DNA of 63,043 nt, counting the filler, from Lophium mytilinum (lineage: Eukaryota), in the NCBI GenBank assembly GCA_010093605.1. It is 4 parts of 3 records of this genome, joined end to end, with 100 filler letters (N's around TTAATTAATTAA, not from the genome) between each part and the next. Parts side by side here need not be neighbours in the genome. Positions count along the whole stretch, not along the records: positions 19,633 to 41,100 come from MU004185.1; 3 more parts are not named here. One strand, written 5' to 3'. Position numbers and translations under genes: made by a program. Positions 6,108 to 52,180 of the stretch are shown here, piece by piece; position 1 is the stretch's first letter, and each line of letters starts with the position of its first letter. Under the pieces are notes generated by a model that saw nothing but the letters and a program-made list of their open reading frames with translations, was not told the DNA's origin and did not search any database.

Positions 6108-6138
6108 TTCTTTCACAGGTCGCCTACGTCTGTACTCC

Positions 6139-19100: not shown

Positions 19101-19451
19101 GAAGTATATTAATTCTATCTACTACTATAAGTCCTCTAAAGTATATATATTATACTAGCTACCTCTAGCCTAGACTCTACCTATTTTTTTATTAATAACT
19201 ATATTAACTAGAATTAATATAATATACTCTATATAGAAGACTAGAAAATAAAGGCATAAAAAGTAATAAGGTAGTACTAGCTTAGTAGTTATACTAAAGA
19301 GATTAAAGCTACTCTAAAAGTTAAAGATATAGTAGAGATTTTAGTAAAGCGCGTAAGAGTAAGAGTACTTACTAATACCTCTTTTCTATAACTAAGCTAG
19401 TAAATACTAAAAAGTAGTATAGTAAAAAGGGGCTATAGCACTAGTAAGTAA
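16174..19451 (+). pseudogene. Plavaka-family transposase with N-terminal C2H2 finger (RIP-degraded, spans an N gap)
   Basis: Reverted motifs: CKYCHKSF..L.KH...H (~16190), RVYTELHTSDWWWQTQ, TVIPILLSTDKTQLT..GDKSVWPVYLTIGNL...RR.....LLGFIP (~17145-17370), and C-terminal FFINNYIDWNQYNTLY (~19185). Confidence 0.85.
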
Positions 19452-19532
19452 TAGCGTAGATAGAAATAAGGCTATAAAAAAAGATATTCTTAATTTTTCC
19501 CTACTATTAAGAGATAATTAAGTATTATTTAG

Positions 19533-19632
19533 NNNNNNNNNNNNNNNNNNNNNNNNNNNNNNNNNNNNNNNNNNNNTTAATTAATTAANNNNNNNNNNNN
19601 NNNNNNNNNNNNNNNNNNNNNNNNNNNNNNNN
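19533..19632. other. Artificial contig linker N44-TTAATTAATTAA-N44
   Basis: The same 100-bp six-frame-stop spacer occurs three times. Confidence 0.97.
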
Positions 19633-19727
19633 AACCCTAACCCTAACCCTAACCCTAACCCTAACCCTAACCCTAACCCTAACCCTAACCCTAACCCTAA
19701 CCCTAACCCTAACCCTAACCCTAACCC
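19633..19727 (+). repeat. Telomere (CCCTAA)n, ~15-16 units, at the start of a contig
   Basis: Perfect CCCTAA array right after the linker. The C-rich strand is on +, the correct polarity for a left chromosome end. Confidence 0.97.
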
Positions 19728-19748
19728 CGTGCTAGCGGGCGGCCAACA

Positions 19749-20062
19749 GTACAGTATAGAAACATCGAGTAAAATTTCGTTACGCGTACTGTATACCTAC
19801 TAGTAAGCGTACAGTATAGAAGCATCTACTAAAATCCCTAGATGCGTACTGTATACCTACTATTAAGCGTATAGTATAGAAACATTTAGTAAAATTTTAT
19901 TAGGCGTACTATATACGTTTATCTTAGTATATACTATAGAAATATTTATTAAGGCTTTATTAGGCGTACCCTATACTTACACATTAGTATATAGTATAGA
20001 AACATTTCTATTAGTCTTATTAGGCGTAATATATGTCTATATACTAGTATATAGTATAAAAC
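19749..20062 (+). repeat. Subterminal 60-bp tandem repeat x ~5
   Basis: GTACAGTATAGAAACAT...GCGTACTGTATAC recurs at exactly 60-bp spacing and degenerates away from the telomere. Confidence 0.9.
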
Positions 20063-20354
20063 ACTTCTTTAAATTCTATTAAGTTTACATCTATTTTAAT
20101 ATATATTATAGTGTTCTTACTAGAAGACTTTCTATAGAGATCCTTTTAATTATAAATTTATATATCTTTTTTATATATATATATTATACTAATATTTTTT
20201 ATAGGGCCTTTATAGGAAGCCTTTCTATAGTAACCCTTATATTACTGCGGTAGTAATTATACTTTCTACTTACTATAGTTCTAATATGCTTCCCCTACTA
20301 TAACCTAAATTAAGTAAGTATAAATAAGTTTCTATTATATATCTCTCTATACTC

Positions 20355-23267
20355 CTAATAAGAATAATAGTTCTTATCCCCCTCCCTTATCTCTACCTCC
20401 CTCTTCCCCTCCTCTAATACCTTTCCTAACACCCCCTTCCTCCTCTCTAATACTTCTTCTAACTCTATTACTATTAACCGCGTATACTTTTCCCTTACCG
20501 CCTTCTTTCTAACTATATACCTTACTATTACTACTACCCTATTCTCCCCGTCTACTCTACTCCCCGGGAATAAACTACTTACTATAGATAGCCCCGGCGC
20601 CAGCGCACTTAGCGCCGCCTACTAATACTCCGGCTGCGGTAGCCCTAGCTCGCTCGCCAGCGCTAGCACCCGCGCCGCCGCACTGCCCGGCAGCTGCACC
20701 GCGGCGTCCTTAGAACCCCCTGCTATCTTCTACTACTTCTTTGCGGACGCGGGCTTATATATAGCGGGCAGCTATCCCTATATATAGCTAGAGTACCGCC
20801 TCCCTTACTATAGCTATATAAGCCGCTTTCTTTAATAGGTAGAGCATAGCGCGGCCGCTAAAGGGGGCGTCCTCCGGGCGGTGTAAGGCCAGCAATAGCT
20901 TAGCGGAGAAGTAGGTGCCGGTTTTAAACTTAGTAAAGGTCGGGACGGAGATTTTAAAGGCTTAGTAGAATTCTATAAAAATGCTAGTAAAGTTTTCCTA
21001 GGGTTCCTTAGGGGTAGTAGTAGTAGGAGTTAGAGTTAAAGTATATTTTTTAGTTTTACTAGGGGTGGAGACTATACCTAAGGCTTTAAGAGAGGAGAGG
21101 AGGGCAAGGCTAAGAGTAGAGGCGGCTTCTTTAGCTTCTTTCTTAGAGGTAAAGGGGCTAGTAGTAGTAAGGGAGTAGGGGGAGCTAGCAGCATAGAGGG
21201 TTAGAGTACAGTTCTAGAAGAGTAGGGAGGCGTTACTATTAAACAAGAAGATAGGTTAGGGGATAGTAAGGGCCTAGTAGCGCTAGATAAAGAGCTAGGT
21301 GTTTGCTAATAAGCGTATAGAGATAGAAATAGGTTAGAGAGTAGATTAGGCTTAGGCTCTAGCGGCGGCAACGGCGGCTTTATACTACTTCTTAAACTTA
21401 TTAATACTAAGAAGGTTTTATAGCACGCTTAGGGCACCTAGAATAGAGCCTCTATATATCTAATCTATTAACGGCGGGGTAGAGTTCTAACTGCTAAGGA
21501 AAGCTACAACCTCTATCTTTCTTTTCTTCTTAAAGCTAGAAAGCGGCGTAGTAATTAAGCTTAGTATAAAGAAAGGATAAGAATAATTATTACTGCCTAC
21601 GCTGGTGTATATATAAGGTTAAAGGCTAGCCTAAAAAGGCTAAGGTAGGGTGCTAGTTTAATCTATATAAGCTGGGGTAGCTATAGCTACTCTACTAGAA
21701 GTTATTCTTTAGTGCTTAGGTAGGAGAGACTCTATATTTATGCGTAGCGGGCTAAGTTTATAAGAGGTAAAGTGTATCGCCGCTTATAGTTACATAATAG
21801 AGCTGGAGCCCGTTTTAATTTCTACCCCTTAGATAATCTACTAAACTTTACGCTCTTTACTATCTATTAGTAAATTTAAGCTAAAGTACAGAAGTCTTAT
21901 TACGGTGCAACAACCTTTATGCAAGAAGGCGGTATATTAGATAATTTCTAGTTAGCCTTTTAATAATCCACATTGCAGTAGATAACGCTAGCGTAGCAAC
22001 TGCACCTTAGAGTGGCTTTCTTTCTATAATGTCCGCAATTTTAGGGCTTGCAAGTTAGCAACGCGGTAGTAGTAGTAATGGAAGATAAATCTTTAGGTTT
22101 TACTATAGTAGTAAAGGGTAAACTAGTGCTATTACTAGGGGTTAGGTCTAGAGGCTCCGCTATAGTAGAAGAAGATAAGACTAATAGTAGAAGAGTAGAG
22201 ATAAAGCTATTAAAGAAGAAAATAAGAGTAAGGTAAAGTAAAAGAGTAAAGCCTATTAGATAATTTCTGCGTAGATAGCGTGGAGGGCTAGGGTGCAGTT
22301 CTAGAAGGGCAGGGACGCGTTACTATTAAAGGAGAAGATGGGTTAGGGGATAGCGAGGGCCTGGCAGCGCTAGATAAAGAGTTGGGTGTTTACTAATAAG
22401 CGCGTAGAGATAGGGATAGATTAGAGCACTGCTGCTCCCGTCTAAGGTTTAGATTTAGGAGTAGATTAGGCCCTGCTGCTTCCGCTCTCTAGCTATAGCC
22501 TTAAACCTTATTTATACAGCCCTTACCTTCTTCTCTTCTATATTAATCCGCAAGCGCAGAAGCTCCTTATTCTTAGAATTATTCTTAAAAAACTTGTAGT
22601 ATCTAGGCTGCTTATAAGGCCGGGCTTAATCTTAATACTAGGCTTAATCTTTATGTTAACTTCGTCGGCTGGTTTAGGCTTAATATTAATATTAGACTTA
22701 GAAGGTGGGGCGCTGTCTCTAGTAGCTTAGAATAGGGGGTTAGCATAGTTATAGAGAGTTTAAGACTTAGTTATAGTAGGCTGCATATTAAGAGCAGTAT
22801 TAGTAGGCGTGCCTAGGCTATTACTAAAGAGGGAACCTCCATTTTAATTCTAGATAGTTGCAAGAAGTGCTTCTCTCTAGGCACAGATGCAGGTAGGGTC
22901 GGCAGTGTCCTCCGCAGTAAGCGGTTTAGTCGTGTAGGGTTAGTCTATATTAGCTAGCTTAGGAGTTATTTTAGAAATAAATAATAAGGACTCCTCTCTA
23001 GCGTTTTGTGCGGTAAGATCTGCGGCATTGCTGGGTGTATTAGGGTTAAAAAGAGGGTTCTAAGTAATAGTACCCGAGCCCATTAGTATGCCTGTTATAG
23101 CGGTGCCATTCTTAGCGTACTGCTCTTCTAAGTTAGTTACATGGGTATTTCTATAGCCTGCCGGCTTTAAAACTTTACGCACTATTAATCTATCTCTCTA
23201 AAGTGCTTTAAATGCAATTAAGAGTCTCTCCCGTGCTAGTTCTAGCTGTTAGTTTGCCTATAGCTAT
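20355..23267 (-). pseudogene. MYND zinc-finger-containing gene (possibly two genes), RIP-degraded
   Basis: The reverted minus frame at ~21950-22045 reads CGHCGKKATLRCS.CASVIYCNADCQKADWK, the zf-MYND pattern. A long frame starts near 23267, and the C-terminus matches ORF 51868-52119 of the other copy. Confidence 0.65.
21211..22426. repeat. ~130-bp internal direct duplication (21211-21339 and 22298-22426)
   Basis: GTTCTAGAAG...GATAGGTTAGAG occurs twice, flanking the MYND motif. It is also duplicated in the contig-3 copy (~50050-50175 and ~51135-51265). Confidence 0.85.
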
Positions 23268-23699
23268 AGTATAGAGAGGAATAAGCTAAAGAAGTAAGAA
23301 AAGAGAGGAAGAGTAAATTAGGCGGGCGCTAAAGCAACGCAGGGTATAGTTACGTAAACTGTATATTATAGGGACCTACTAGTTCCGCCTAAGGTAAAAT
23401 ATATATATAGTATAGTAATAAAATAAAACTCTTAGAGCTACCATTTATGTATAGTATATAGAGTTAACCTTTAAAGGTTAATTATAAGTATAGGTATAAT
23501 ATAAGTAGTTAGCACGTAATATGCTAAGATTAATAGAAACTAGCGCATTAAACCTTTTTCTAACTACTATCTATCCCTTATAGTATAGCAGCAGCCCACG
23601 CATAATACTATACGCAAGTCTTAATTAGTATACTATATACATCCTTCCTAGAGCGTTCTAGCAGATATTTATAAGATAAGAAGCGGCCTAACCTAATAT

Positions 23700-24450
23700 A
23701 GAGACGGCTGCAACCCTAAACTAGGCTAAAGTATATAAAATATAGCCCGGCACACTAAGGTTAACGCGCAGCAGCACAGCAACTCTAAATGCTAAGGATG
23801 ACGTTCGGCAGGGGTAGATATATCTACGTCTGCCCGATATATATATCCTAATAGAGCGGTTAGCTTCTCCTCTTACCACACCTAATACCCTATCTAGGCG
23901 CAAGGTTACAAATGCCACCCTAGATTTGGTTGCAAGAAGGAAGCTTATACAGCTAAAGCGCTTATTAAGACGGCTATAAGAATAGAAGCAAAGGAAAATA
24001 CTAGAATAAAAGAGCAGTTCTATTTATAATATAGAGACTATTTATAACTGCAAGAAGAAGGAAAGTTATATTAAAAGCGATAAATGGTAAGACTGTAACC
24101 CCTTAAGGATTACTATCCTTACTAATAATAAGCAGGTCTAAATACATCGCCAATAAACTAGAAAGTACAACTGCGATACCTAAATTGCCTTCCGCCGCCT
24201 AGCATGCTAAAGACTTAACAACAATATATGCAAATAACTCTTCTTCTAGTTAGTTTAGGCATTATATAATAATACACGCTTTAGGGAACTATAGGTAGAA
24301 TAAAGTTATATACAGCGTATTAATAGATAGGGTCTATAGAGAGGACTTAGCCTAGCTGTATAACTAATATTAGTAAAGAGGGTTAAATTGCAGGGTATAT
24401 AATAGTAGATTCTTTACTATAAAAAAGATAGGGAGCACATATTAATAGTG
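23700..24450 (+). pseudogene. Small divergently oriented gene with one predicted intron, unknown function
   Basis: Coding-like frame with a GTAAG...CTAAT...CAG intron at ~24087-24135. No confident domain. Confidence 0.35.
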
Positions 24451-24913
24451 CAGATATAACAGAGCAGTATTAGAATATAATTACCCTCCCTAACTATATA
24501 AACTATAGCGGATAAGACCGCCCCCTATAATATAGATAAATAAAATAAATATTATATTATATATAAGATACGCAAGGCATAGTTATAGTGGTGAATATTA
24601 CGCTATATTCTATAGTTAAGTAAGCCGCTATCTAGAGGCTAAATATAAACTAGGAAATTTTAAGGGTATAAAGTATACTACTACTATAGAGCAGTGCTAA
24701 CTATTAGGGGGTAGGGGATGGAACGCAAGTAAGAAATTAGAATAGTAAAAAGTTGGCAGTACTAAGTAAGTAGGTGCAAACTAATAGCAAGAAAAGTAGT
24801 CCTAATTAGAACCGTTAGAAAGAAAAAGAAAAAGATATTAAGAGATACTAAACTAAATCTAAAAAGTAGAATAAGGGCCCCTACGGGAAGCCTTTCTATA
24901 AAGACCCTACTAG

Positions 24914-27900
24914 TTATACCTTACTATTAGACTTCTCCGGCGCTATGCTAGTTCCCTTTAATTTACTACCATCCTCTTTACTATTAGGGTCGGTATCTGC
25001 ACCTAATGCCGCGGGTGGTCGGCCGACGTTAGAATTATTCTTCCGCCTGCGTAGGTCTATTTTTGGTCTAGTAGAGTTTGCAGACTTCTACGCGGCAGCT
25101 TTCTTCTTAGCAGCCTTCCTTTCGCGCTAAGGGCGCTACTTAGTAATCTCTTTCTTTATTATATACTTATACGGACGATATATAAGGGATTTAGATATAG
25201 GGTCTTTCTTAGCTGCTTTATCCTTCTTTATAGTAGGCTTCTTTTTTGCGCCTTAGCGCTTCCAACTCTTATTAGTATTGCTAGAGGATATAGTCTTTAG
25301 GGTTGGCTGCAAGGCCCCTTCTATAAATTCTAGCGGGTTATCTAAGTTACTACTATAGTTGCTATTACGCTTAAAGGCAACTTTAGATGGTATAGTAGTA
25401 AAATCCGGGTAATTATTAAGATACTCCCCGTTTTACTTATTAGTCTTAGACGGGACGTTCTCTATATTAACGTCGGGGGTTTTAATATTCTTCTTATTCT
25501 GCTTATTATCTATATTAATATTAGCTTTTAGTAGTAAATAAAAAACTAGATCATCTATAGAATCCTGCGAGGAGATAGTAGATATTTCGCGCTGCCTCTT
25601 CTTCTATATATTAGGCAACGGGACGGGGTCTATAGAAGGGGTCCTAATAAGGCGTCTATTAAAGGTGCTAAGAGGGCTAGAAGGTAGGGTTAAAGTAGGT
25701 TAACGGGTGGAAGTAGGAGCTGCTATAATAGTTAGCACTTAAGCAATATAATAGGCGATACTAAAGGGCCCTAGCAGGAAGGCTTTCTAAAAAGGCCCTA
25801 GAATGAATTCTTACCTATATACTTTACAAGAAATAAAGTATTATTCTTATACTCTTTACCTTTAGAGTTATTACTATTTAGCCTACTAAAAGGGTTATCG
25901 CCGTTTATATTACTAAAAATAGCGGGTACTTAACGCAAAGGGTTACGCTCCGGCCTATGTTAATGGATAAAAGGGGTATAAGCATTTCTAGTAGCGCTCT
26001 TTATAGGGGTGGGCATATTAGATTTAGTAGAATCTAAGTCTTTAACTATAATAGTAGACTTAGGGTTAGGCTTGCGCTTCTTAATAGCAGCCGCTGGTAT
26101 AGTACTAGCTTTACGCTTCTACTTTAAAGCTTTACTATTTTATTGCTCTAGCGTCTTTAGCTTTAGCTTTAGGGTGGCTTTTACTATAAAACACGAATTA
26201 GCAAAGTATAAAGAGGCAAGTAGGGCCCTAGCAGGAAGCCTTCCCGCTAGAACCTATAAGGGCGAACTTACTGCTTGCAGGATAACGCTTAAGCCTTAAA
26301 CCTAGCTTATTAACACGCGGTTTCTTAGGCGCTCTACTTGCACCCTTCTCCTACTCTTCTTCTAATTCCAATTTGGTGAATTCGTACGCTTATTCTTCTT
26401 AGAACTTATTACTAAACCCACTAGACTAAAAAGTTATATTGCCTCGCGTAAGGGTTATTAGAAATATAAGGATATCTTATAGGGAGTTAAAGCGCTTAAT
26501 ATATAATTCTACCGGCATATTTAAAATATCTATTTCGCCTATAATAAGGCGGGGTGTAATGCTCTTATTATTATAGGTTACCTACGCATACTGGCTATCT
26601 AGGGTTAGCTTTTCCTTAGAGGTCCCCTCCACCTTAATCTAGTTAGTGTTTAACGCAGCAGTAAGACTAGGAAGCGCTATCTACACCTAGCGCGAGAGAG
26701 TAAAGGCATTAAATGTGTCCTGGATAAAGAACGCAGTTACTATAATAGTAAACTTCTGGCTAATCCTATATAAACGCGCTATTATTTACTTCTTAATCTA
26801 AATAGAGCCTGTAGGGTTAAAAAGATATATATTATAGTAAGTAGACTATAGATTAAGCCTAGCTCTATTAGCCTGGTAACTAGTAATAAGGATCTTTACT
26901 TTAGAGTTAGGGTCGTTAAACACTAAGATAAGGTTGTCCCGGTTAGTAGTAGAGAGATTAGAGGCTAATATATAAGCATCTATTTTATAATAGTTAATAA
27001 TCTTAGCAAGAATTATTTACTTATCCAGGTAGTTAGTCTAGATAATAACCTTCTCTATACGCTTAATAACGTTGTTAGCTAAATAGTATAGTAGTATAGC
27101 CACTTTAGGGGCATTATAGATAAAAAGGGCGACAATATAATAAAAGGATGCGGACTTTACTTTAAAGTCTTTTTAATTAGGGTTAGTTTAGACGTTCTTA
27201 TTCCGGGCAATTTACTTTATTATGCCTCGCAAAACGTCTATTTCCTTTAACTAGTGACCGCCATTATTCTTAAGAGGGATAATTTTCGGGCCGTCCTTAA
27301 TCTTATTGCCTTCTAAATCTAAAACCTTCTCTTGCGGATATACTATTATGGCGCGCTTAGAGTAGACTAAAAATGGCGCAGTACTTATAAGGTTAAAAGC
27401 ACGCATAGAGCATGCGTTAAATGCATAGGTGCGCTAGCCTACGCGGTTCTTAGTAGGAACTATTAATAACTTAAGGTAGGCTGGCGATTTATTGGCATAG
27501 ATAATATGGCCTAGTTTTATAGGCTGTAGCTTAATTACTCGCGTAACTAACCGCGGAAGTAATTCTCTAATTCGGGTGGCAGGATTAGTAGAATTATTTA
27601 GGCATGTAGAAGGGTATAAGCAAGTAATTATATACTTGCTAAAAATTAAGCGCAAATAAAGCCCCTGTATAATCCTGGAGAAATATTAGAAAATTAAAGT
27701 AAATAAGAGGAGAGATAAGGGCCCTGGCTAGAAGCCTTTCTACTAGGGCCCTTTATATAATAACTTACGGGTTAAATAAAGGCAGAATAAAATTTTTAAA
27801 AGCCTTGCGTGTATACTAGAAAATTATACCTAAATAGTTATTAGGAAGCTTAAACGGATTATTAGTACCCGGAATAAACTTAGCTTTACCGGGTTTTAAG

Positions 27901-30702
27901 CAGTACGTGCGGAATTATAGATGCTTATCTCTTAGTTCTATAAAAGATATATAAGCAGGCATATTAGTAATGCCTATATATAGCGGGGTTCTACTATAGA
28001 GCATAGTAAAGTCTAAGTAAAGCTATAACGCAGTTAGGTGGAGGTTTACTTAGTTGCTTTTAATAAGCTAGCACTTGTCTATAAATTGGACGTTAAAACA
28101 GCCACTTAAGAGACCGGGCTAGGTGGAGCTTAGGCGATATTTAACCTAATTCTTTAGCTTAGTAAGATTATTGTTGCTATACTACTTTAATGCGGGCTAG
28201 GGACCGTGCCAACCGGCCATTACCTAATAGCTGGCAATTACGATGCTCTTAGTATTTACCTTATTTTTAGTATTAAATAAGGGATGGTCCCTGGTTAAGG
28301 TGTTATATAGAAACGTAGCGCTATAGAAAGCAACTTAGCCCTTTAATAAATAGATGTAGAGCTTAAGTTTAGAACTAAACTTTGCAAGTTTATTCGCTAT
28401 TTAGTGTACTAAAACGGAAGGCACAAGAAAAAGGAAGGGCTTCGCCGGCCCGGGGTCTTTCTTATCTATAACTTTGCGCTGGCGCTTAGTAATAAGCTAT
28501 AATTAAATTAGTAGATGCTAAGAGAAACTATTAGGGGGGTAGTAGAAAGGCTTTCTATTAATACTCTTTAAAGAGAAATTGCTTACATATCTAATAAGGG
28601 TAGCCATTAAAAATATCTTTCTAATACTAACCTTATCTATAATTAAAGCCCTACTAAGAAAGCCTTTCTATATAATATAGTATATATAGTAAGCCCTAGT
28701 AATCTACTACCACCTTAAGTAAATATTGCCATTTATTATAATAAGGCGGGGTTTCTAATAGTTATAAATGCGTAGGGCCTTTATTACTTCTTTTAGGTTA
28801 TCTAGCTAATAGGCTTTATTAGTTATTAGAAGGCGGAGTATACTCTATATTGTAAGATCTACCGCGGTTAGTATAGTAAAGGGGATAATATTCTTTACAT
28901 TAATAGCGGTAGCCCTTATATTAGCCTCCATATCTTAGGCATGTTTAATACTGTCTAGATTAGCATACTTGTCCTTATTTAGATCTACAGCGCGCATATT
29001 TAGGTGCTATTTAACGGTATATATAAAATCTCCTGCTATCTATCTAATTACCCGATATGCGTTGTATTAAAACTTTAACGAGTTCTAGTTAATTATTGCT
29101 CCGGTGCGCTTAGCATGCATAATTACTAACTTAAGCTCCTGTTTTATAGTGCCGGTGATGTACTTAGCACTAGTAATATTAACGTTGCCTTTCTTCTTAT
29201 TAACTAGGTTTGCAGCAATTTCCTCTTTAGATAACCCCTAGATAGGGTTGTCTGCGTTAACCTCTATATTAATGGCCGCGAGTTCCTCCTTAGTAAAATA
29301 AGAGGGCAACTGCCGACAGGGAGGCCTAGAAGGGCCTTAACGGAAAGGCTTCCTATTAATATTCTTACTACTATAAGCAATGGTTTTGGCCGGGGTCTTA
29401 GGTGCCGGTGCTAGACTAAGCTTTATTTTTTAAAGAATATTCTATATCTTAATTTAGTTCTTAGTACAGGCGGTTCTACTAGCTTAAGACGGGCCACTCT
29501 TAAACTCTATATTTTTCTTTAATTTAAAGAAGATTCTAAGCGCTTTATTATTAGTAATATTAGCGCGGTTGTGCAAAAACCCACTAAACCGCTTCCGGTA
29601 GTAATTAAAGCATTAACTAATAAATTAAGCTGCCTAATCCACGGGTTTGTAGTTATCCGTCTTAGGCTAAGAAGTAGTATATCGCTGCAGATTATGCAAC
29701 TTGCCAGTCTTAAAAGCGTTTAGAATAGTAGTAAAACTGGCCCCTTAATCCTAACTATGCATAGCGCGCTTTAGGTCTAAATACCTATCCTTATACTTAT
29801 TCTAAATTGCTTAGAAATTAGGCTTAGCTAGAATTACTTTAAGTTCTGCTTTTATTTAACTATAAAGCTTGGCTAACTTTATTCTACTAGCATACAGCGT
29901 GTTTACTAAGGCCTATAACTTCTCTAACTCTTTATCTTTTCTAGTACTAGTAACTAGCGCTTAAAGCTTCTCCTGCTCTTTATTAGAGTTCTTAGGGATA
30001 TTAGAGTTATTACTATAGTTATCGCTATCTAGATAAACTACTTTACTATTTGCTAATGTAAGCGTCTCCGGATCTATTATAGTGGCCGGCTAATCGCGCT
30101 TTAAATTAACATGGGCATTAACCCTTAATTTAGTAACTAGTAGGGAGGTAGAATTTAGATCTTCTAGCACTTTAGAAGAAGTAGATTATTTCTTATAGCT
30201 ATCTACTAGGTTAGTTGCAGGTAATATGCGCAGGAATGCAACCTTTACTACTACTTTGCTAGGGTCCCTATTACTTAAGGTATTTATAGCTAGTCTATTA
30301 ATATGTTAGCTTATTTTAAATAATAGAAGAAAGAAGGCAGGCAAAGGGCCCTAGTAGGAAGGCTTTCTGCCAAGACCCTTTGCACTATGCCGGGTATTTT
30401 TAGTATTATTATTTTCTCGACATTTTCTACCGCCGCATCTTTAAAATTAAGGCAGACTAATCTACTAAGACTAGTAAAGGGCCCTAGCAGAAAGCCTTCC
30501 TGCAATAATTCTTATAATATACTTACCTCACTCCACTCTTAGAGAAATTGCGATGGAATAAACCTGTTAGCAGAATTAGCTATAACGTAACTTAATTTTA
30601 CCTGCTGGACAGTAAACTTACTAAAAGGCTTAACCGCTAGCTAAAAAGACGCCTAAAATAAGCTAATTGCGGCTCTAATGTAGCTAGGAAACTACTAACT
30701 AT
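24914..30702 (-). pseudogene. SNF2/SWI2-family helicase-like ATPase, 6 predicted introns, RIP-degraded
   Basis: Reverted motifs: GGALIADEVGIGKT (Walker A, ~28615-28655), KPFLFLVPSVLVHQ, FMDECQLIK (~28060-28087), YSGTP, KVIIWT, and GAGLNLQSACHNVHLFDP...EKQAIARLYRIGQ (~26755-26870). Introns GTAAG...CTAAY...YAG at 25723-25814, 26184-26271, 27675-27768, 28497-28586, 30295-30526 and 30564-30621. Confidence 0.9.
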
Positions 30703-31379
30703 TATCTAGTAAGTAAGGGTCTAGCGCGCAACTGTTCTATAGGTAGCTAGATAAGTGGAAGTAATAGGAGTGCGGTGGTGTAGAAGGAGAGGTTAGTATA
30801 GAAGTAAGAAAGTTAAAGCTGCCAGGCGGTAGATAAGTTCGTGGGCGGCCGGGCCGATAGCCGCCGGCCGCTAAGACGCTAAGCCTTTAACAGTAAACTA
30901 CTTAAGTTAACTCTTAAGGTTAACGTAATAGCTGTATATTATATAAGGTTAAAATATTGCGGGTGTAAATATATCAGCGTTTTACTTAATTTCGCCGATA
31001 TATAAATATTTACGGTTAATCTATAATACTACGCTATATATTACCTAGTTCTAGTAATATAGTACTACGCTAAGATAGGTTAATAGAACATTGCGCGTTG
31101 TTGTATAACTATTTGCCTACAGTATAAGAGTCTTGCTAGAAAGCCTTCCTGCTAGGGCCCTTTGCTACTTATATTAAGCACGCCTATTATTACCTCTCTT
31201 CTTATATATATTACCGCTACGCACCTACTAGATAAGCATTTGCGTACTATATAAGAGCCTGGCTAGAAGCCTTTCTACTAACGCCCTTTATATCTTATAC
31301 TAATTACTTTACTATCTTCCTTATTAATAATTCTTCTTTATAACGCCGCCCCTGCTAGTCTACCTATTAACGCTTAAAT

Positions 31380-34300
31380 CTATATACTCCTTAGAACTCT
31401 TCTACTTAAGCCTTATTCTTCTAGGCCTCTTACTCTAAGTCCTCTAAGTCCTCTATTTCTAAGCTGTAGTTACCTAAACTCTCTTTATACTTATACTCTT
31501 TATCTAATAACTAACTACTTATATCCCCCTCTTACTCCTTCTATATCGCTAAATAATTCTAGAATTCTTTAATTATTAGAATTCTGCCTAAATAAGCCCT
31601 TAGGCTATTTAGTGTATAGTGCTTAAACCTAAGCTGGACACGTTTTAGATTAACTTAACCCCTAGGGCCTATAATATTATCCTCTATTATTATTATCTTT
31701 AACTTTCCTGGGCTTCCCTAGGTTATATTCTATACTTCCTTTGCAACTACGTCTATGCTAAGGTTAACTGCCCCCCCTTAAGCCTGTTCTTTAATATATT
31801 AGCTTAGTTAGGCTACCTTATAGTAGTAGCTATTTAGTAGTTGCATATAGATCTACTATATATTTATAATTATATCTCTTCCCCTAATATTATCTTATAT
31901 ATCTTTAGAGTTGTTTTATTTAGCTTAACGCGTGGTTAAAATTTTGTTGTTATTATATCTTAAAAGAACCTAGAGTAATAAGGCGGCTCTTGCTTATAGA
32001 TTATTAAGGAATTATTCTACCGTTTTTAGTAACGCTTCATTTCTAATTATTGCATTTAATCTTCGCAATTTTATGCGGAAGGGACTGTTGTTCTATTTTT
32101 AAGTTTCTGCAGCTGGATCTATAATATTAAATAGCGGCTAGACTTAATTAATCCAGCGTCTAGTTAAGTGCCTTAGATAATTTGTATTACTATTTCTAGC
32201 TACATTCTACACGTAGGTGTAGCTTACTATAAGTTCTAACTTTCTATATAGCTTTATAAGCATATTAGGATAAAGCGCAACTATAGATCTATTTAGAATA
32301 CTCTTAAGAAATTAGTCGCGTAGTTCTTTACTCTTCTATTACGTCTTAGTATTTCTATCTTCTCCTATATACTATCTACTTAGAAGCTCGTATATATTAG
32401 TATAGTATGCCTTAATAATAAGCGCAGCTGCCTTACCTATCCATAGCGGTGCCAATCGCCAATCTTTTTGCACTTTAGTCCTATTTTCGCGTTAAATAGC
32501 TGGCGTGTACTATGCTGCAATACTATACTATAGATACCGCATCTCTATATTCTCCCTAGTAAGAGATACCTAAATCTAAGCTTTAGTAAACGTAGCTTAG
32601 AATTAATTCCTAAGGCCGGCTTGCAGTTAATTAACGCCTTAAGGGCTAAGTTGTGGGGGCGTTGTTGTCTAATCTAAGTACTCTAACTTTAGCTAAGCTA
32701 TGCTATACTTCTTAAGGGAGTCTAATAACCTAAGGCTATACAAGGTTACAGGATTCTAGGGGTCTTTTTAATTTATCCACTCTTTTTTCTACAGTATAGA
32801 TAATTAAGTAGGATTACCACATCTAGCAGTAATTTACGCAAGGCGGATATAAAGAGATGCTAAATAACTATTTACTAGCTATTTATCTAGTATTACTATA
32901 TGCCTAGCATTACGCCCCGGGGTAACCTAAAGAGACAGTACCTGGAAAAGAAATACCTAGCAATTAAGGTTTACAATAGTAAAGGCATTAACTTCTTCTA
33001 TAGAAAGAACCTAGTAGGGGTAATAAGGCTTACTACTATTGTCCGGCCCATCCTTTATAGTAAATTTAGGACTTGCGCTTTCTTTAAGTTGCTTAAGTAT
33101 AGTAAGAAGTACTTAGAACTTAGTTTAAACCCTATAGAATAAGTGTCTATCTCTCTAGAGTATAGTATAGTGGCGTTAGAGAATAGCAGCAAGACTATCC
33201 TAAAGCTATTTTCTTTTTAATAATTCTCTAGAGCTACCTGCCGCTTTAAACCACCGCTTAATTATTTTAGTTAAGAACGTAAGAGCTTCTAGTTAAGTAT
33301 TATAAAAGGGCGTAATATTCTTAACGGGTAACTTAAGTATAATCTTATTACTATTATAGATTTTATTATATACTATACTACTAATACAGCTATAGTTACC
33401 TACTTAGAGCTCTACTATTAGAGATAACGCGCCCTAGATAAGATAGTAGGGGTACAATGTTATATAAATCTTTTCTTTTCCGCCGTTGTAGAAGTAAGTG
33501 GCCTAGTAGTTATTATAGCTAGTTTTGCGTAGAAGGGTAACCCCGGTATCTAGCTAATTAGTAGTTAGGATATCTTTATATCTATAGTTAATCTATATCC
33601 CCTTATCTAGTATATTAATTGGGTTTTTATTAAAAGTAGTAGTTAAAGTACGTAGTAGCTAATCTCTACTTTAAATTATACTTAAGGACTTATATGCCAT
33701 TTTTAGATTATAACCCGAGACTACTAGGAATACTCCTTTAAATAAATCTTTAGGTATAGTATCTATTTCTGCAAAGTTTTCTATGTTATAAAGAACTTAG
33801 TTCTAGAATTCTTAGAGTTAACACTATAGAATTATATACTTAGTATTAATATAAGAGTCTCTAGATAATATTATATATTTTTCTTTCTTAACGCTTGCTT
33901 TACCCTATATAATATTAAAACTGTGTAGTATATGCTACTACTTATTAGGTGTTAGAGTATACTTTACTACAGGTAAGATAATATTATTGAGCTAAGCTGC
34001 TTACATTATATCTAGTAGATGCAAAGTATTGCCCTTTTGCTTATTTAGTGTTGGCATCTAGGGGAAAAACACGTAAGTTTTAAATTAATGCTTATACCTG
34101 TGCCCTATGCAAAGCTACTTTATTATATAGAGCTTATGGCCGCGTATTATAATGCGTTAGTTTTAAGTAATACTTTAGAGGAAGGATAGTTATAGAGATA
34201 GTAAGAAGTACAAATTATAGGCCGCTAAAGTAGAGATGCCAATAATAACGCTATTAATATTATACACTCGCTGGATTTTAATCTCTTTATTTGCTATAAA

Positions 34301-36520
34301 GCTAGCTTTAGACCTTATAAAACTAAGCCTTAGAGTTTCTATATTACTAGTTTCTCCGCTTAACATTAATTTCTATAGGACATTATTAAAGTTATTAGAA
34401 TTATTCTCTCTCTATAATAGCTCTAGTTGGCTTATTAGATAGAAGGCTGTATTGGCTATAATAGGCTCTTATTAGGAGGGAAGGTTCTAAGCCAGAAGAA
34501 AGCTAGTAACTTAGCTAAGGGATCTGCTCTAAGAAACTATTATATAGTTACTTGCTATATTATAATATTAGCTACTATATTATCTAAATAGAAAGAGTTA
34601 AGATATATAGTAAGTACACTAGACTTCTAACGCTAATTAGATTATACTTACTACATATAGAGTATTTACTAATAGATTATTATGCCTACGTATATTAGCT
34701 TTATATAAACTATAGGGCTTATAATACTTGCCTATTAGGGTCTATCTTATCTATAACTTTGTCTATAATCTCGCTGTTACCTTCACTATTTAAGGCTGTA
34801 TTATCTACCCTACTGCCTTAATTCTCTAGTATAACTTCGTTAAGTAAACCCAGTAATTTATCTATAGTGTCTTGCTATCCTTGCATATATATACCTTCTC
34901 TACCCTCTTTAACTCTATTATCTAATACCTTATCTATATCTGCACCTGCTTCTATCTTATTCTTAAGTTAGGTAAATTCCTCTTCTATAACCTCGGTTAC
35001 TGGCGTTAGGCGGAGAGATAATAAGGTAGCGTACCACTCCATCTAAACCTAACCGTTGTTGTGCGCTAGTTGCATAAACCAACTTATATTAGCTAGCATT
35101 TCCTCCTTATCTATTTATTCCGCAGCGTCTATTCTAGAGAGCACTTCTACGGCCTTATTTTATTGCGCTAAGAATAATTCCGCTGTAATCTCTTTGTTAG
35201 TTATTTGCGCGAGTATATAGAGCAGTAATACAGTAATAAGGGCTAGTGTTTAGCGTTATATTATTAGTTCTAGTTATGCAGGAGTAGAAGCTACTATAGT
35301 TTATTAAGCGCGTAAACTTGCGCGTAGTATTATAGCCGTCTATAAAGTATTCTAGAGGGCAAGGATAGTATATACGCCTGTATATATATATAGTATAGCT
35401 GCGGGTTTAAGAAATACTTTGCAGAGATAGCGTATAGCGGGTAGAACCCAGCCCGGAGCTCTATTATTATTATTTACGGCTTGCCGAGGTGTCCCTACGC
35501 TGGAAGGTAGTAATAGAGAGGGCAACACCTCTCTAGTATCTAGAGGCGGTGGTAACGCAGGTGTATAAGGAGACAACGCGGAAGATATAGGTAACAGCAA
35601 CTCTAATACTGCCTCTTCTACTTCTTTATCTACTTAGGCTACTTCTTTATTTACTTTACTTTCTTTAGCTACTTCTTCTTCTTCTTTAACTGCTGCTCCC
35701 TTAATAGTCTATATAACAGCATACTTACTACTATTACTCTAATCTTACTCTATAGCTTCCGTTAATTCTATGTTGCTTTAAATTTTAGGTATATATTAGG
35801 CCGCTCTTAACTTACTAGAGCGTGTACTACTGCTAGTAGACTGCTAGGTATAAGAAAGTTATATTAGTTAAGTAGGTTAAGAGGTTAAAGGAGCGAAAGA
35901 ACAAGTACTACTATAAGTAGCCCGCCCTAGAGTAGAATATTAGGTAGGTTTAGTAGATAGAGGAGGAGCGGTAGAATAGATACTACTATAGGTAGACCGC
36001 TATAGAGAAGTATATTACGTAGATTACGTAGGTTAGATAGATAGAGGAGGAATAGTAGAACGGGTACTACTATAAGTAGACTGCTGCGGAGGAGTATATT
36101 ACGTAGATTAAGTAGAGGTAGAAGGTAATAATTCTTCTATTAAGACGGGTTCTACTTAAGTTTATTAGAACCTAACTATAAATACTAGGAGATTATAAAA
36201 GATATACTAATTATAAGTTATGCAATAGTTTCCTCTAAAGGCTCCTAAGGTGCAATTAGTTATTAAAAGGGCGTAGGCGCAGGGCGGGTGGGATAAGGGG
36301 CCCTAATATTTATACTAGAAAGACCTCTAGGGTTTTTAAAGATAATTAGAAACAGATCTAGAATAGAAGTAGGAGTAGGCTTGCTAGCCTCTCCTACTAT
36401 AGCTGTTTAGTCTATAGCCCTCTTCTTTTTATCTCTTTTACGTTGGTTCAAATCCACTATTAAACGTAATTTAGCTGCTTTTCGCTCTTCTTTATTCTAG
36501 TACTTTCGGGGGCGTCCTAT
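31380..36520 (-). pseudogene. Large protein of unknown family with N-terminal AT-hook (MGRPRKY), Pro/Ser-rich linker and acidic tail
   Basis: Start at 36520 reads M(ATA)GRPRKYQNEEERKAAK. A long continuous reverted frame at ~34200-32200 has motifs YVFFP, WLDDIILPA, QHMPHSF, SGHDLK, WIDYGYED, TLLRK, YNKIYN, PFHNTQLEAL and GLGL..SLKKYGMAW. Confidence 0.6.
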
Positions 36521-36799
36521 ACTAACTACTAGGTATAGTAGTAAGGGGAATAATAGTTTAGAATATAGAGCTAAGGAGCGGAAAGCGGTTAGGGAGTGTA
36601 ATTAGTTAAAAATAAGGATTTATTAATATTCTTATTATAGGGCTTACCCCGCCTAACCCGTTTTAACACCCCTTACAGATACGGCCACTCGGTTAAGGTC
36701 GCTGGGGAAGGGCCCTAGTAGAAAGGCTTTCTGCGGTAGCCCTATTAATTGCTTTATCTATAAACGTTGTATAAACTATATCCTGCCCTTTACTTTATA

Positions 36800-37715
36800 T
36801 ATTTTATTTAATGCGGCTGAAATTTCTATTATATAAGAATACTATCTAGTAGCAACCTATACTAAGGCGAGGCTATTATAACGCAAAACCCTTTCTATTA
36901 TATCTATTACCCTCTATAGGCACCTACTACTAGGACTTCGCCTTTTCTATAATGCTTTAAATTTAATTGCGTATACTGCATATAGTATTATAGCTCTATT
37001 ATAGTATCTTAATATCTAGGAGTTATTATATGCAGCGGTAGAAAGGCTGCTTAATTATAGGGCTATACTCTCTGCTGCTAGCTACCCTCTTCTCTTACCC
37101 TCTACACCTACCTAGAGCCATAACTACAGCCTATAAAATATTTCTAAATTGCTAGAATACTATTGCATTGCATAATAAGTAATTTTCCTTATAAATATCT
37201 TTAACCTTATATTGTAGTGGTTCTATGCAGCGCTAGTTAAGGTCTTTATTAAGTGCAAGGCTGGCATTACGCTAAACTCTTTAAGTAACTTCTATTATTT
37301 AGAATCTTACCTCTGCATATAACTGCCACTACTACTATAGCCTGCATATTAATTCTAAGTTAATAGATTACTATCGCATTATATATTATATATAATTCTT
37401 TATATATTTCTTCTATGCTATATTATAGTAGTTGCATGCAGTAGTAGTTACACTAATTCTTAAGCACAAGGCTATTCTTACGCTAAACCCTTTAAGTAAT
37501 TTCCATTCTATGCCTGCGCACCCTGCGGCCTCTCTATATCTACCTTAAGCTACTACTACGGCTTGTAAATTAAATTAAAGTTAATAGAACGCTATTATAT
37601 TGCGTTCTAAGTATTATTCTTCGCATGCATACTCTATTTCATGTTATGGTGGTTAAATGCGGCGGTGCAAGGTTATGCTGCACGTAATTCTTAAAGGTTA
37701 ATTTTCTCTATATTA
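36800..37715 (-). pseudogene. Probable gene built from ~200-bp internal repeats, unknown function
   Basis: Three to four diverged units begin GCA..AAC(C/T)AC on the minus strand, and two share a WKLLKxFSV-like segment. The frame is uncertain. Confidence 0.35.
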
Positions 37716-37759
37716 AACTCGCTTCTCCCTACCTAACTTTAACCCTCTAGCCCCTATAA

Positions 37760-37771
37760 TAACCCTAACCC
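37760..37771 (+). repeat. Two telomeric repeats (TAACCC)2 at the junction between element copies
   Basis: Absent from the homologous positions on either side (37300-37310 and after 38220). Confidence 0.8.
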
Positions 37772-38220
37772 TTTATATATAACTACTACTACTACTATAG
37801 CCTATATATTAATTCTAAGTTAATAGATTACTATTATATTATATATTATATATAATCCTTTATATATTTCTTCTATACTATATTATAGTAGTTGCATGCA
37901 GTAGTAGTTATACTAATTCTTAAGCGCGAGGCTATTCTTACGCTAAACCCTTTAAGTAATTTCTATTCTATGCCTGCGCACTCTATAGCCTCTCTATATC
38001 TACCTTAAGCCACCACTACGGCTTATAAATTAAATTAAAGTTAATAGAACGCTATTATATTATATTCTAAGCATTATTCTTTGCATGCATACTCTATTTC
38101 ACGTTATAGTAGTTAAATGCAGCAGTGTAAGGTTATACTGCACGCAATTCTTAAAGGTTAATTTTCTCTATATTAAACTTACTTCTCCCTATCTAACCCT
38201 AACCCTCTAGCCCCTATAAT
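37770..38220. mobile_element. Truncated tandem copy: last ~450 bp of the telomere-linked element
   Basis: Direct repeat of 37310-37760 with the same end, CCCTCTAGCCCCTATAAT. Confidence 0.92.
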
Positions 38221-41100
38221 AGTAGGAAGCCTTTCTATAATAATTCTTATAATACGCTTACCTTACTCTACTCTTAGAGAAATTATAATAGAATAAACCT
38301 ATTAGTAGAATTAGCTATAATATAACTTAATTTTACCTGCTAGATAGTAAACTTACTAAAAGGCTTAACTACTAGCTAAAAAGACGCCTAAAATAGGCTA
38401 ATTGCGGCTCTAATATAGCTAGAAAGCTGCTAACTATTATCTAGTAAGTAAGAAACTAGCGCGTAACTATTCTATAGGTAGCTAGATAAATAGAAGTAAT
38501 AGGGGTGCGGTAGTATAGAAGGAGAAGTTAGTATAAAAGTAAGAAAGTTAAAGCTACTAGGCGGTAGATAAGTTTATAGGCGGCCGGGCTAATAGCCGCC
38601 GGCTACTAAGACGCTAAGCCTTTAATAGTAAACTACTTAAGTTAACTCTTAAAATTAATATAATAGCTATATATTATATAAGGTTAAAATATCGCGGGTA
38701 TAAATATATTAGTGTTTTACTTAATTTTACTAATATATAAATATTTATAGTTAATCTATAATACTACGCTATATATTACCTAGTTCTAGTAATATAGTAC
38801 TGCGCTAAGATAGGTTAATAGAATATTGCGCGTTATTATATAACTATTTACCTATAGTATAAGGGTCTTACTAGAAAGCCTTTCTACTAGAGCCCTTTAC
38901 TACTTATATTAAGTATATCTATTATTACCTCTCTTCTTATATATATTACTGCTATATATTTACTAGATAAGTATTTACGTACTATATAAGAGCCTAGCTA
39001 GAAGCCTTTCTACTAATACTTTTTATATCTTATACTAATTACTTTACTACCTTTCTTATTAATAATTCTTCTTTATAACGCCGCCTCTACTAGTCTACCT
39101 ATTAATGCTTAAATCTATATACTCCTTAAAACTCTTCTACTTAAGCCTTATTCTTCTAGGCCTTTTACTCTAAGTTCTCTAAGTCCTCTATTTCTAAGCT
39201 ATAGTTACCTAAACTCTCTTTATACTTATACTCTTTATCTAATAACTAACTATCTATATCCCCCTCTTACTCTTTCTATATTACTAAATAATTCTAGAAT
39301 TCTTTAATTATTAGAATCCTACCTAAATAAGCCCTTAGGCTATTTAGTATATAGTACTTAAACTTAAGCTAGATATATTTTAGATTAACTTAACCTCTAG
39401 GGCCTATAGTATTATCCTCTATTATTATTATCTTTAACTTTCCTGGGCTTCCCTAGATTATATTCTATACTTTCTTTGCAACTATATCTATACTAAGGTT
39501 AACTACCCCCCTTTAAGCCTATTCTTTAATATATTAGCTTAGTTAGGCTACCTTATAGTAGTAGCTATTTAGTAGTTATATATAGATCTACTATATATTT
39601 ATAATTATATCTCTTTTCCTAATATTATCTTATATATCTTTAGAGTTATTTAGTTTAGCTTAACGCGTAGTTAAAATTTTATTGTTGTTATATCTTAGAA
39701 GAACCTAGAGTAATAATACGGCTCTTACTTATAGATTATTAAGGAATTATTCTACTGTTTTTAGTAACGCTTTATTTCTAATTATTATATTTAATCTTTA
39801 TAATTTTATATAGAAGGGACTATTATTCTATTTTTAAGTTTCTATAGCTGGATTTATAATATTAAATAGCGGCTAGACTTAATTAATCTAGCGTCTAGTT
39901 AAGTATATTAGATAATTTATATTACTATTTCTAGCTATATTCTATATATAGGCATAGCTTACTATAAGTTCTAACTTTCTATATAGCTTTATAAGCATGT
40001 TAGAATAAAGTATAACTATAAATCTATTTAGAATACTCTTAAGAAATTAGTTATATAGTTCTTTACTCTTCTATTATATCTTAGTATTTTTATTTTCTTC
40101 TATATACTATCTACTTAGAAGCTTATATATATTAGTATAGTATACCTTAATAATAAGCGCAGCTACCTTACCTATCTATAGTGGTGCTAATTGCTAATCT
40201 TTTTATACTTTAGTTCTATTTTTATATTAAATAGCTAGCGTATACTATACTATAATGCTATACTATAGATACTATATCTCTATATCCTCCCTAGTAAGAG
40301 ATACTTAGATCTAAGCTTTAGTAAATATAGCTTAAAATTAATTCCTAAGGCCGGCTTATAGTTAATTAACGCCTTAAGGGCTAAGTTATAGGGGCGTTAT
40401 TATCTAATCTAAGTACTCTAACTTTAGCTAAGCTATGCTATACTTCTTAAGGGAGTCTAATAACCTAAGGCTATATAAGGTTATAGAATTCTAGGAGTCT
40501 TTTTAATTTATCTACTCTTTTTTCTATAGTATAGATAATTAAGTAGAATTACTATATCTAGCAGTAATTTACGCAAGGCGGATATAAAGAGATGCTAAAT
40601 AACTATTTACTAGCTATTTATCTAGTATTACTATATACCTAGTATTACGCCCGGGGGTAACCTAAAGAGATAGTACCTAGAAAAGAAATACCTAGTAATT
40701 AAGGTTTATAATAGTAAAGGTATTAACTTCTTTTATAGAAAGAACCTAGTAGAGGTAATAAGGCTTACTACTATTATCTGGCCTATTCTTTATAGTAAAT
40801 TTAGGACTTGCGCTTTCTTTAAGTTACTTAAGTATAGTAAGAAGTACTTAGAACTTAGTTTAAACTCTATAGAATAAGTATCTATCTCTCTAGAGTATAG
40901 TATAGTAGTGTTAGAGAATAGTAGTAAGACTATTCTAAAGCTATTTTCTTTTTAATAATCCTCTAGAGCTATCTACTGCTTTAAACTACTACTTAATTAT
41001 TTTAGTTAAGAATATAAGAGCTTCTAGTTAAGTATTATAAAAGGGCGTAATATTCTTAATAGATAACTTAAGTATAATCTTATTACTATTATAGATTTTA
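38220..41100. mobile_element. Truncated tandem copy of the telomere-linked element (matches 30485-33365), running into the contig end
   Basis: Colinear direct repeat, visibly more RIP-mutated than copy 1. Confidence 0.92.
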
Positions 41101-41200
41101 NNNNNNNNNNNNNNNNNNNNNNNNNNNNNNNNNNNNNNNNNNNNTTAATTAATTAANNNNNNNNNNNNNNNNNNNNNNNNNNNNNNNNNNNNNNNNNNNN
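41101..41200. other. Artificial contig linker
   Basis: N44-TTAATTAATTAA-N44. Confidence 0.97.
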
Positions 41201-52119: not shown

Positions 52120-52180
52120 AAGTATAGAGAGATATATAATAGAAACTTATTTATACTTACTTAATTTAGGTTATAGTAGG

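Follow-up and report, generated by a model that had tools for sequence, protein, structure and literature searches.

Composition of the window and the chromosome end

We analyzed a 63,043-nucleotide stretch of the genome of Lophium mytilinum (assembly GCA_010093605.1; hereafter the window), in which a telomere tract adjoins an 18-kb repeated unit that carries the relic of a SNF2-family ATPase gene. Three 100-bp spacers, each composed of N44 + TTAATTAATTAA + N44 (19533-19632, 41101-41200 and 52181-52280), interrupt the sequence. The window is four scaffolds chained by artificial linkers, with copies of the unit on separate scaffolds, and neighborhood across a spacer is meaningless. Because the spacers split the window, the (CCCTAA)n tract is simply the start of a separate scaffold, B. 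The scaffolds and the features at the chromosome end are as follows.

1-19532: scaffold A
19633-41100: scaffold B (21.5 kb, no internal N gap)
41201-52180: scaffold C
52281-63043: scaffold D
19633-19727, plus strand: terminal telomere tract (CCCTAA)15.8, opening scaffold B after the linker at 19533-19632
19749-20110: subterminal 60-bp tandem repeats, ~6 units, 74-76% matches (five in-register copies)

The telomere 18-mer had 13 matches, compared with 0 in 100 shuffles, and the tract is oriented as expected at a left chromosome end. An initial annotation of this DNA had described a (CCCTAA)n tract abutting a unit with subterminal 60-bp repeats, and both features stand at these positions, with the tract directly against the unit. 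We read scaffold B as a genuine chromosome end of a filamentous ascomycete with active repeat-induced point mutation (RIP).

Copies of the unit and their decay

All four scaffolds bear the mark of RIP, with TpA/ApT of 1.8-2.0 and (CpA+TpG)/(ApC+GpT) of 0.15-0.45. Stop-to-stop frames of at least 150 aa were absent from the real sequence of the whole window and occurred only in N runs. Transitions accounted for 868 of the 881 mismatches between B and C, with CpA as the preferred context, and for 255 of the 260 differences between two copies inside B, or about 98% of copy differences. We therefore compared copies in a space where bases are collapsed to purine or pyrimidine (RY space), which is unaffected by RIP since RIP turns C into T and G into A and makes no other change. 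RY-space identity was 99.7-99.85% between B and C, 99.83% between the internal B copies and 100% over 454 nt for the 0.45-kb end pieces, indicating that the copies were almost identical before RIP. Besides the long unit of scaffold B, the copies are:

41201-52180, minus strand: scaffold C, equal to B 20294-31431 reverse-complemented, ~11 kb, ~92% identity, heavier RIP
38220-41100, plus strand: left-truncated second unit copy, equal to B 30485-33365, 91% identity, running off the scaffold end
37770-38223: solo 0.45-kb unit end, equal to 37310-37763

These are the three further partial copies that the initial annotation had reported. Both termini of scaffold C are scaffold ends and hence mark no element boundary; its copy stops 660 bp short of the telomere junction. 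Scaffolds A and D resemble each other (D is ~92% alike over parts of A), and neither matched B, even in RY space, which ruled them out as copies of the unit. The window holds two long copies of the unit (B and C) besides the short internal pieces of B. RIP has wrecked all copies seen, and the block is now able to serve only as AT-rich end-buffer DNA.

A SNF2-family ATPase relic in four exons

The principal gene of the unit reads toward the telomere on the minus strand:

24925-30294, minus strand: SNF2-family ATPase pseudogene, at least 1698 codons in four exons
30294-27769, 27674-26272, 26183-25815 and 25722-24925, minus strand: its exons
~28976-27771, minus strand: SNF2 N-lobe
~27673-26396, minus strand: SNF2 C-lobe

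Additional 5' exons probably reach ~31.2 kb. An exhaustive HMMER protein search against 1.84 billion representatives returned 153 proteins at E<=1e-3 and 23 at E<=1e-10 (best P0008, 7.1e-37), many of the matches being short fragments. SNF2-rel_dom and/or Helicase_C were present in 17 of the 18 matches scanned, out of 150 listed. When the matched proteins were aligned back by local tblastn, they hit only B 28976-26393 (minus) and C 43984-46150 (plus). All nine PDB matches to a C-lobe tile were SNF2-family proteins (best Rad54-like 1z3i, E 3.7e-4); the N-terminal tile gave chance matches only. Pfam recovered SNF2-rel_dom (E 0.012) and Helicase_C (E 0.038) from read-through translations with stops written as X, in the proper order and both short of the cut-off. 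Whole-frame read-through translations of 3666 aa had no Pfam match, and shorter tiles were required. One named relative is a 'putative DNA repair helicase rad5,16' of an Aspergillus, and the closest solved structure to the family is an archaeal SNF2/Rad54 helicase core. On this homology the predicted ATPase is placed in the SNF2 family and is not assigned to any subfamily. The SNF2 ATPase of the initial annotation is borne out as a relic on the minus strand at 28976-26393 by homologues, PDB and tblastn alike. RecQ and OrsD gave no match among the Pfam tiles, the PDB search or the domains of the scanned homologues. Looking for fused, longer versions of P0008 produced a single weak match, and hence nothing for an intact SNF2+MYND fusion.

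Once three introns were removed, one spliced frame carried fewer stops than either alternative in every exon (45/841, 19/467, 4/122 and 7/265, against 88-125, 47-63, 13-25 and 18-46 for the two remaining frames). With 75 stops in 1695 codons, the gene is a pseudogene whose reading frame is not intact. The spliced frame aligned to the homologue P0159 in a single alignment (residues 622-1376, E 2e-65) that ran over the exon joints at 841 and 1309. The last two exons encode a lysine/arginine (K/R)-rich tail, likewise found in the homologues. Together, the spliced frame and the alignment across its joints show that what had been annotated as separate SNF2 and large AT-hook genes are exons of one gene: the latter is the K/R-rich C-terminal exon, in which an AT-hook is not established. 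The 'multi-gene' set as originally meant consequently falls away, at least two of its 'genes' being exons of the same gene.

A family of palindromic introns

A 33-nt perfect palindrome, GGGCCCTAGCAGGAAG-C/G-CTTCCTGCTAGGGCCC, forms the core of an intron family: scaffold B has 11 copies of it, scaffold C has 8, and scaffolds A and D lack it. The family spans 20189-31172 plus 36710-36742 in B and 41472-47599 in C. Read on the minus strand, well-kept copies have a GTAAGT-like donor 10-20 nt ahead of the palindrome and a CTAAC-like branch site and YAG acceptor 40-70 nt downstream of it. Seven copies could be modeled as introns of 85-123 nt with donor and acceptor, six of them with a branch site:

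20189-20273, minus strand: introner-like intron, 85 nt, nearest the telomere; GTAAGT donor, RIP-degraded palindrome, TAG acceptor, no recognizable branch site
24802-24924, minus strand: introner-like intron, 123 nt, following the K/R-rich exon
25723-25814, minus strand: introner-like intron, 92 nt; frame kept upon removal
26184-26271, minus strand: introner-like intron, 88 nt; spliced frame continuous, P0159 alignment spans the junction
27675-27768, minus strand: introner-like intron, 94 nt, at the junction of the SNF2 N- and C-lobes; homologues run on across it without a break
30295-30385, minus strand: introner-like intron, 91 nt; GTGCAA donor, CTAAC branch site, TAG acceptor
31070-31172, minus strand: introner-like intron, 103 nt, donor RIPped to ATAAGT; duplicate at ~38805-38907
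30476-30508: half-palindrome of the intron family; the segment found again at 38220 has its left boundary (30485) inside it

In unspliced DNA, homologue alignments break off at 27771 and restart at 27673. All three introns tested (27768-27675, 26271-26184 and 25814-25723) restored the reading frame when removed, with homologues contiguous across two of them. A hairpin appeared in the minimum-energy fold of all seven introns; z was <= -1.95 against shuffles in two of the seven, and three of the seven folded worse than the shuffle mean. Base pairs have been broken by RIP.

The related locus L001, on a metagenome contig, has a SNF2 frame that is uninterrupted over residues 16-769 and has no intron at the lobe junction, which makes this intron a gain of the present lineage; the 33-nt palindrome was not found in L001. 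By their sequence, the predicted introns match descriptions of introner-like elements and 'sister' introns. As far as the available text of the sources describes these (PMC3609843, PMC8469720), the present family shares with them near-identity, many copies, GT..AG and branch signals, a built-in hairpin or symmetry, and recent gain. The present family differs in having at least nine copies in one 18-kb unit, in a core that is a 33-nt perfect palindrome rather than 45-55-nt terminal inverted repeats, and in splicing that is predicted here (PMC3609843, PMC8469720). Internally symmetrical 'sister' introns are described in Hypoxylaceae in the accessible part of one source (PMC8469720).

MYND-like finger and other coding relics

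Purine periodicity, which is RIP-proof, recovered the known SNF2 frames and indicated minus-strand coding across 20.3-30 kb. The remaining coding relics of the unit are:

21900-22055, minus strand: MYND-like zinc-finger relic; copy in C at 50419-50574, plus strand
20300-23000, minus strand: telomere-proximal coding relics, with periodicity at 20.3-21.2 kb (frame -,1) and 22.1-23.0 kb (frame -,2)
34560-35700, minus strand: acidic coiled-coil-like open reading frame relic; all four PDB matches Snf7 (ESCRT-III), E 0.09-0.26; no Pfam match

Pfam zf-MYND (PF01753) matched copy C only, below the cut-off (E 0.05, 14.1 bits against 22.7), and found nothing in copy B. The ligand consensus of MYND fingers is C6HC. 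Codon-by-codon comparison of B and C recovered five of the eight zinc ligands, all Cys, and a sixth is RIP-compatible: at several positions one copy has a Tyr codon where the other has Cys, and stops fit RIPped Gln or Trp codons. The terminal His-x3-Cys misfits in spacing. The MYND finger named in the initial annotation is weakly supported as a candidate, by the ligands recovered in the copy comparison and by a sub-threshold Pfam match in a single copy. Beside this relic, the only piece that a run with the same species label, possibly RNA (X3), placed on B was 46 nt long (21884-21929); it belongs to a 3469-nt GC-rich contig that diverges on both sides and may come from an intact MYND-type gene.

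The relics at 20.3-23 kb had no Pfam or PDB match, a PDB search of 22.2-23.3 kb included, and none of the six frames of 31.4-37.8 kb had a Pfam match. Across 31.4-37 kb the strand call by purine periodicity was ambiguous. Plus-strand coding at 32-37 kb, proposed from stop-codon density, was dropped on account of this ambiguity and of the sole protein match lying on the minus strand. That match, the Snf7 likeness at 34560-35700, is tentative and may reflect coiled-coil resemblance only.

Anatomy of the array

Scaffold B is a head-to-tail array. Inward from the end come the telomere, the 60-bp repeats, the MYND-like gene, the SNF2 gene, ~6 kb of unassigned relics and a satellite-like end. This 18-kb unit (19728-37759) is followed by a telomere vestige, a solo 0.45-kb end and the left-truncated unit. 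Features specific to the array are:

37060-38219: satellite-like right end, five 220-250-bp subrepeats forming two 460-bp units
37760-37772, plus strand: internal two-repeat telomere vestige TAACCCTAACCCT, separating the 18-kb unit from the solo end copy
21187-21339 and 22274-22426: 153-bp direct repeats flanking a 1.09-kb MYND segment, 98.7% alike in RY space

Each 460-bp unit terminates in CTAAC(C/T)(C/T)TAACCCTCTAGCCCCTATAA, and the solo 0.45-kb copy bears the same terminal motif. The vestige TAACCCTAACCCT is oriented like the terminal telomere tract. Exact matches to the 10-mer CCCTAACCCT beyond that tract number three, at 37763, 38197 and 55199, where we calculate that ~0.03 would be expected by chance. 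The unit copy starting at 38220 has lost its telomere-side part up to 30485, a truncation point that falls within an intron palindrome; by our arithmetic, palindromes make up ~2% of the unit.

Two DNA runs from one sample, X1 and X2, were available as contigs. They contain 0.57 and 0.49 of the sampled words and may be the source of the assembly. Approximately 3900 short variant contigs per run fell on B at >=85% likeness, with differences that were nearly all transitions. One X1 contig connects 21233 to 22326 (with 5 other letters between), which indicates that some copies lack the MYND segment. In X1, summed contig depth, which is not a copy number, climbed from ~200 on the telomere side to ~2100 at 35.6-37 kb; the X2 values went from 130-180 up to ~6300. 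Depth dropped again at the start of the second unit copy.

Within the unit, 84-bp tandem repeats (~3 units) lie at 35864-36115. The motif CCTTAACCCTAACCCTCTAG, found at D 55193-55208 and A 3098-3113 (RIPped in A), recalls the motif CTAACCCTAACCCTCTAG of the unit's right end in B; beyond this likeness there was no homology between the A and D motif regions and that right end.

Search for mobility enzymes

Reverse transcriptase (RT), RNase H, integrase, transposase and recombinase gave no Pfam match in B in six frames, and a RIP-tolerant [YF]x[DN][DN] motif had 0 sites in B, compared with 1 in A. Terminal inverted repeats spanning the unit were absent, the only inverted repeats being the 33-nt intron palindromes and a local pair at 30.3-31.2 kb, and target site duplications were not seen at the unit. 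As a positive control, the same Pfam procedure applied to scaffold A, where RIP is heavier, returned RT_RNaseH_2 (E 3.7e-4) and RT_RNaseH (E 0.0075), from this element:

Scaffold A 7500-12300, plus strand: gypsy-type long terminal repeat retrotransposon relic; 4.8-kb periodicity coding block, RT motif RIPped to YINN at 9817

The positive control shows that the method is able to reveal a retroelement relic in such DNA. The initial annotation's statement that the unit has no recognizable RT or transposase thus agrees with the six-frame search and its control, at a sensitivity that is low.

Relation to known subtelomeric elements

The unit shares several properties with the telomere-linked helicase (TLH) blocks of filamentous fungi and fission yeast and with the Y' elements of yeast: all are multi-kb, multi-copy, adjoin telomere repeats and have a large SF2 helicase/ATPase as their main gene. 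Yeast Y' elements form tandem copies parted by short telomere tracts, and the vestige at 37760-37772, which parts the unit from the truncated copy that follows, is a Y'-like feature. Telomere adjacency itself is seen in the sole copy that reaches the scaffold end. Unlike TLH and Y', the helicase here is SNF2-family, neither RecQ/OrsD nor Y'-Help1; the unit also has at least one further gene (MYND-like) and a palindromic intron family, and all seen copies are dead. To our knowledge, the helicases of the known blocks have so far been RecQ-like or Y' only.

Terminal Penelope-like elements, in particular the 'Terminons' of bdelloid rotifers, are also alike in being giant multi-open-reading-frame, telomere-attached units with proximal telomere-type repeats and intron-containing genes. 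Terminons are defined by an Athena-type RT, of which none was found here, and we know of none from ascomycetes.

Further published parallels are the 'host-specific subtelomeres' of Fusarium and Colletotrichum, 10-19-kb repeats common to chromosome ends, for which maintenance by recombination, as for Y', has been proposed (Huang, 10.1101/721753). According to the available portion of that paper, subtelomeres of 11/18 kb in Colletotrichum and 13 kb in Fusarium carry a helicase gene, and both RIPped and intact helicase subtelomeres occur across Fusarium, Colletotrichum and Pyrenochaeta, the RIPped copies being in Pyrenochaeta (10.1101/721753). Some subtelomeres of Fusarium oxysporum f.sp. melonis and F. 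equiseti have a gene for a MYND-finger protein of ~400 residues and a gene for an unannotated protein of 1255-1830 residues (10.1101/721753). The same portion reports no SNF2 domain among the subtelomeric proteins of Fusarium and Colletotrichum, which we liken to the present unit by description and not by sequence; the lone SNF2/Helicase_C protein it mentions has 1276 residues, is on C. higginsianum chromosome 11 and is not stated to be subtelomeric (10.1101/721753). The Fusarium and Colletotrichum copies are described there as intact and near-identical, whereas the present copies are RIP-dead (10.1101/721753).

MoTeR and FoTeR, in the accessible text on them, also form telomeric head-to-tail arrays with truncated members, short telomere tracts between elements and built-in telomere-like repeats, as seen here; they differ in being ~5 kb or less with an RT, whereas the present unit is 18 kb, has no RT that we found and has genes opposite to the strand of target-primed reverse transcription (PMC8381367, PMC12857005). 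AcademH, as described in the part of PMC10799480 available, has DEAD and Helicase_C domains, and SNF2_N is counted there as a non-transposable-element domain. Within a limited literature search, no SNF2-type telomere-linked helicase family was found in print. What is new here is SNF2 in place of RecQ, together with the introner family, within the known subtelomeric helicase repeats. Since multi-kb helicase-bearing subtelomeric repeats are already described (Y', RecQ TLH, Colletotrichum and Fusarium), the undescribed class suggested by the initial annotation is not warranted. Its idea of a chromosome-end element encoding chromatin-type proteins survives in part: the SNF2 ATPase, the probable MYND relic, the telomere abutment and the multiple copies stand, and the new class does not.

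Helicase-bearing subtelomeric blocks such as Y' and TLH are thought to support telomerase by recombination. A block with a SNF2 motor would broaden this picture, and the question why helicase genes are recruited to chromosome ends could be put to a second, independent instance. The palindromic introns would provide a compact natural case of intron gain, with a relative that is intron-free at the site, and the truncation of a unit inside an intron palindrome ties introners to breakage. The locus also carries a caution about spacer-joined scaffolds in a record and about RIP masking domains from standard profile searches; RY-level comparison, being RIP-proof, regained both frames and copies.

A proposed recombination-borne helicase repeat and its rivals

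The observed array anatomy, gene model, SNF2 identity and RIP decay lead us to favor, at roughly even confidence, a Y'/TLH-like subtelomeric helicase repeat that was spread by erosion, healing and recombination and was later killed by RIP. Left truncation, vestiges at the joints and a gradient that is high at the proximal side fit two processes, target-primed reverse transcription or invasion by short telomeres. The minus-strand position of every oriented gene and the failure to find an RT make us prefer recombination. In this mechanism, a chromosome end would erode or break within a unit (one break being inside an intron palindrome) and would retain or regain a very short telomere. The short telomere would then invade another end, at the telomere-like tract that borders a unit there on its proximal side, and break-induced replication would copy the invaded unit out to its telomere. 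Repeated rounds would give head-to-tail arrays, left-truncated units, two-repeat vestiges at the joints and proximal parts that are more numerous. The block would thus be copied from end to end by recombination, not as a transposon with its own integration enzyme, and we infer that the ATPase may once have had a role in this copying. Experiments in Pyricularia, in the accessible part of their description, show compromised telomeres invading interstitial telomere motifs and producing tandem arrays, truncated elements and 'small telomere vestiges' (PMC8381367).

Several observations weigh against this reading. A single unit-telomere junction is visible in the window, and no intact copy of the unit was found. 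The greater number of proximal than distal unit parts is a hint from contigs of one sample. Domain detection in RIPped DNA is weak, as the E values of the SNF2 domains (0.012 and 0.038) and of the integrase (rve) domain of a copia-like element at L001 (0.062) illustrate, so that an RT or recombinase relic could have been overlooked, above all in 31.4-37 kb. The L001 locus is RIP-like (TpA/ApT 1.62, only three frames of at least 120 aa) and covers 22 kb, starting 4.4 kb inside a 45.7-kb contig. Its 22 kb contain no (CCCTAA)>=2, and what it has in common with the B unit is the SNF2 part only, which fits a dispersed repeat equally. L001 shows that the SNF2 gene belongs to repeated DNA in another fungus too, and offers no support for telomere linkage there.

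One alternative, which we consider unlikely but the strongest of the rivals, is that the unit is an ordinary AT-rich RIPped repeat block without any particular link to telomeres, with the SNF2 gene in a dispersed repeat or an unknown DNA transposon and this one copy beside a healed break. The family is highly repeated, as the ~3900 short variant contigs per run on 20 kb attest; the telomere-adjacent bin has the lowest depth in X1 and almost the lowest in X2; the SNF2 relic of L001 is RIP-like and stands beside a copia-like element with no telomere repeats in 22 kb; and many protein matches are short fragments. Against a dispersed repeat, telomere-type motifs stand at two internal joints in the orientation of the terminal tract, the truncations are all on the telomere side, and a 60-bp satellite follows straight after the telomere in the manner of a subtelomere. 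Cut-and-paste and Starship-type DNA transposons are marked by terminal inverted repeats or target site duplications together with a transposase or tyrosine recombinase; none of these was seen, at a detection sensitivity that is low.

The contig depth that climbs toward the right end of the unit would also suit a telomere-targeting retroelement of the MoTeR/FoTeR, terminal Penelope-like or Terminon kind. Such an element would be read in the plus sense, with an RT relic too RIPped to be recognized, copies added by target-primed reverse transcription and the SNF2 gene as antisense cargo. Loss of the telomere-side (5') part of copies, an isolated 3' end of 0.45 kb, a short telomere tract between units and a telomere-like motif 13 nt from the unit's right end all agree with it; antisense introns would be expected to outlast retrotransposition, and RT detection in RIPped DNA is poor. 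However, the plus frames of 31.4-37.8 kb had no RT, RNase H or endonuclease match at E<=10, nor did any appear elsewhere. The RIP-tolerant YxDD motif had 0 sites in B where the control in A was positive, and purine periodicity revealed no long plus-strand coding block, compared with 4.8 kb in scaffold A. The minus strand, whose 5' end does not face the chromosome end, carries everything that could be oriented (SNF2, its introns, the relics at 20.3-23 kb) and the sole match in 34.6-35.7 kb as well. Distal truncation and telomere joints are explained by recombination as well, on the part of the Pyricularia work available (PMC8381367). We judge a retroelement improbable.

Similarly doubtful, in our estimate, is a more ambitious form of the recombination reading: a fossil self-propagating chromosome-end element that would have lacked RT and transposase, carried its own SNF2 (Rad54-like) recombination motor and a proximal telomere-like landing pad through which eroded telomeres would invade it and copy it to further ends, and been a helicase-driven 'recombinational transposon' distinct from the RecQ and Y' types, with palindromic introners as hot spots for breakage and invasion. 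An assembly artefact, in which telomere reads or the 60-bp satellite were misjoined to a collapsed repeat scaffold, is very improbable: scaffold B is small and unplaced and the family's repeats fragment the X1 and X2 assemblies into 200-340-bp contigs, but X1/X2 contig depth is present in 30 of 30 bins (19633-20299 included), the scaffold has no internal N gap, and the internal vestiges and truncated units form a coherent array.

Other features

In L001, the copia-like element lies at 14700-20500 on the minus strand; its zinc knuckle, RT and integrase (rve E 0.062), and the repeated ends that flank it, could be made out by eye. Scaffold A contains a GC-rich island (GC 0.42-0.55) at 5000-6700 amid AT-rich RIPped DNA; within it, a 17-bp unit is repeated 9.6 times at 5962-6124 and a 27-bp unit 4.8 times at 5543-5668.

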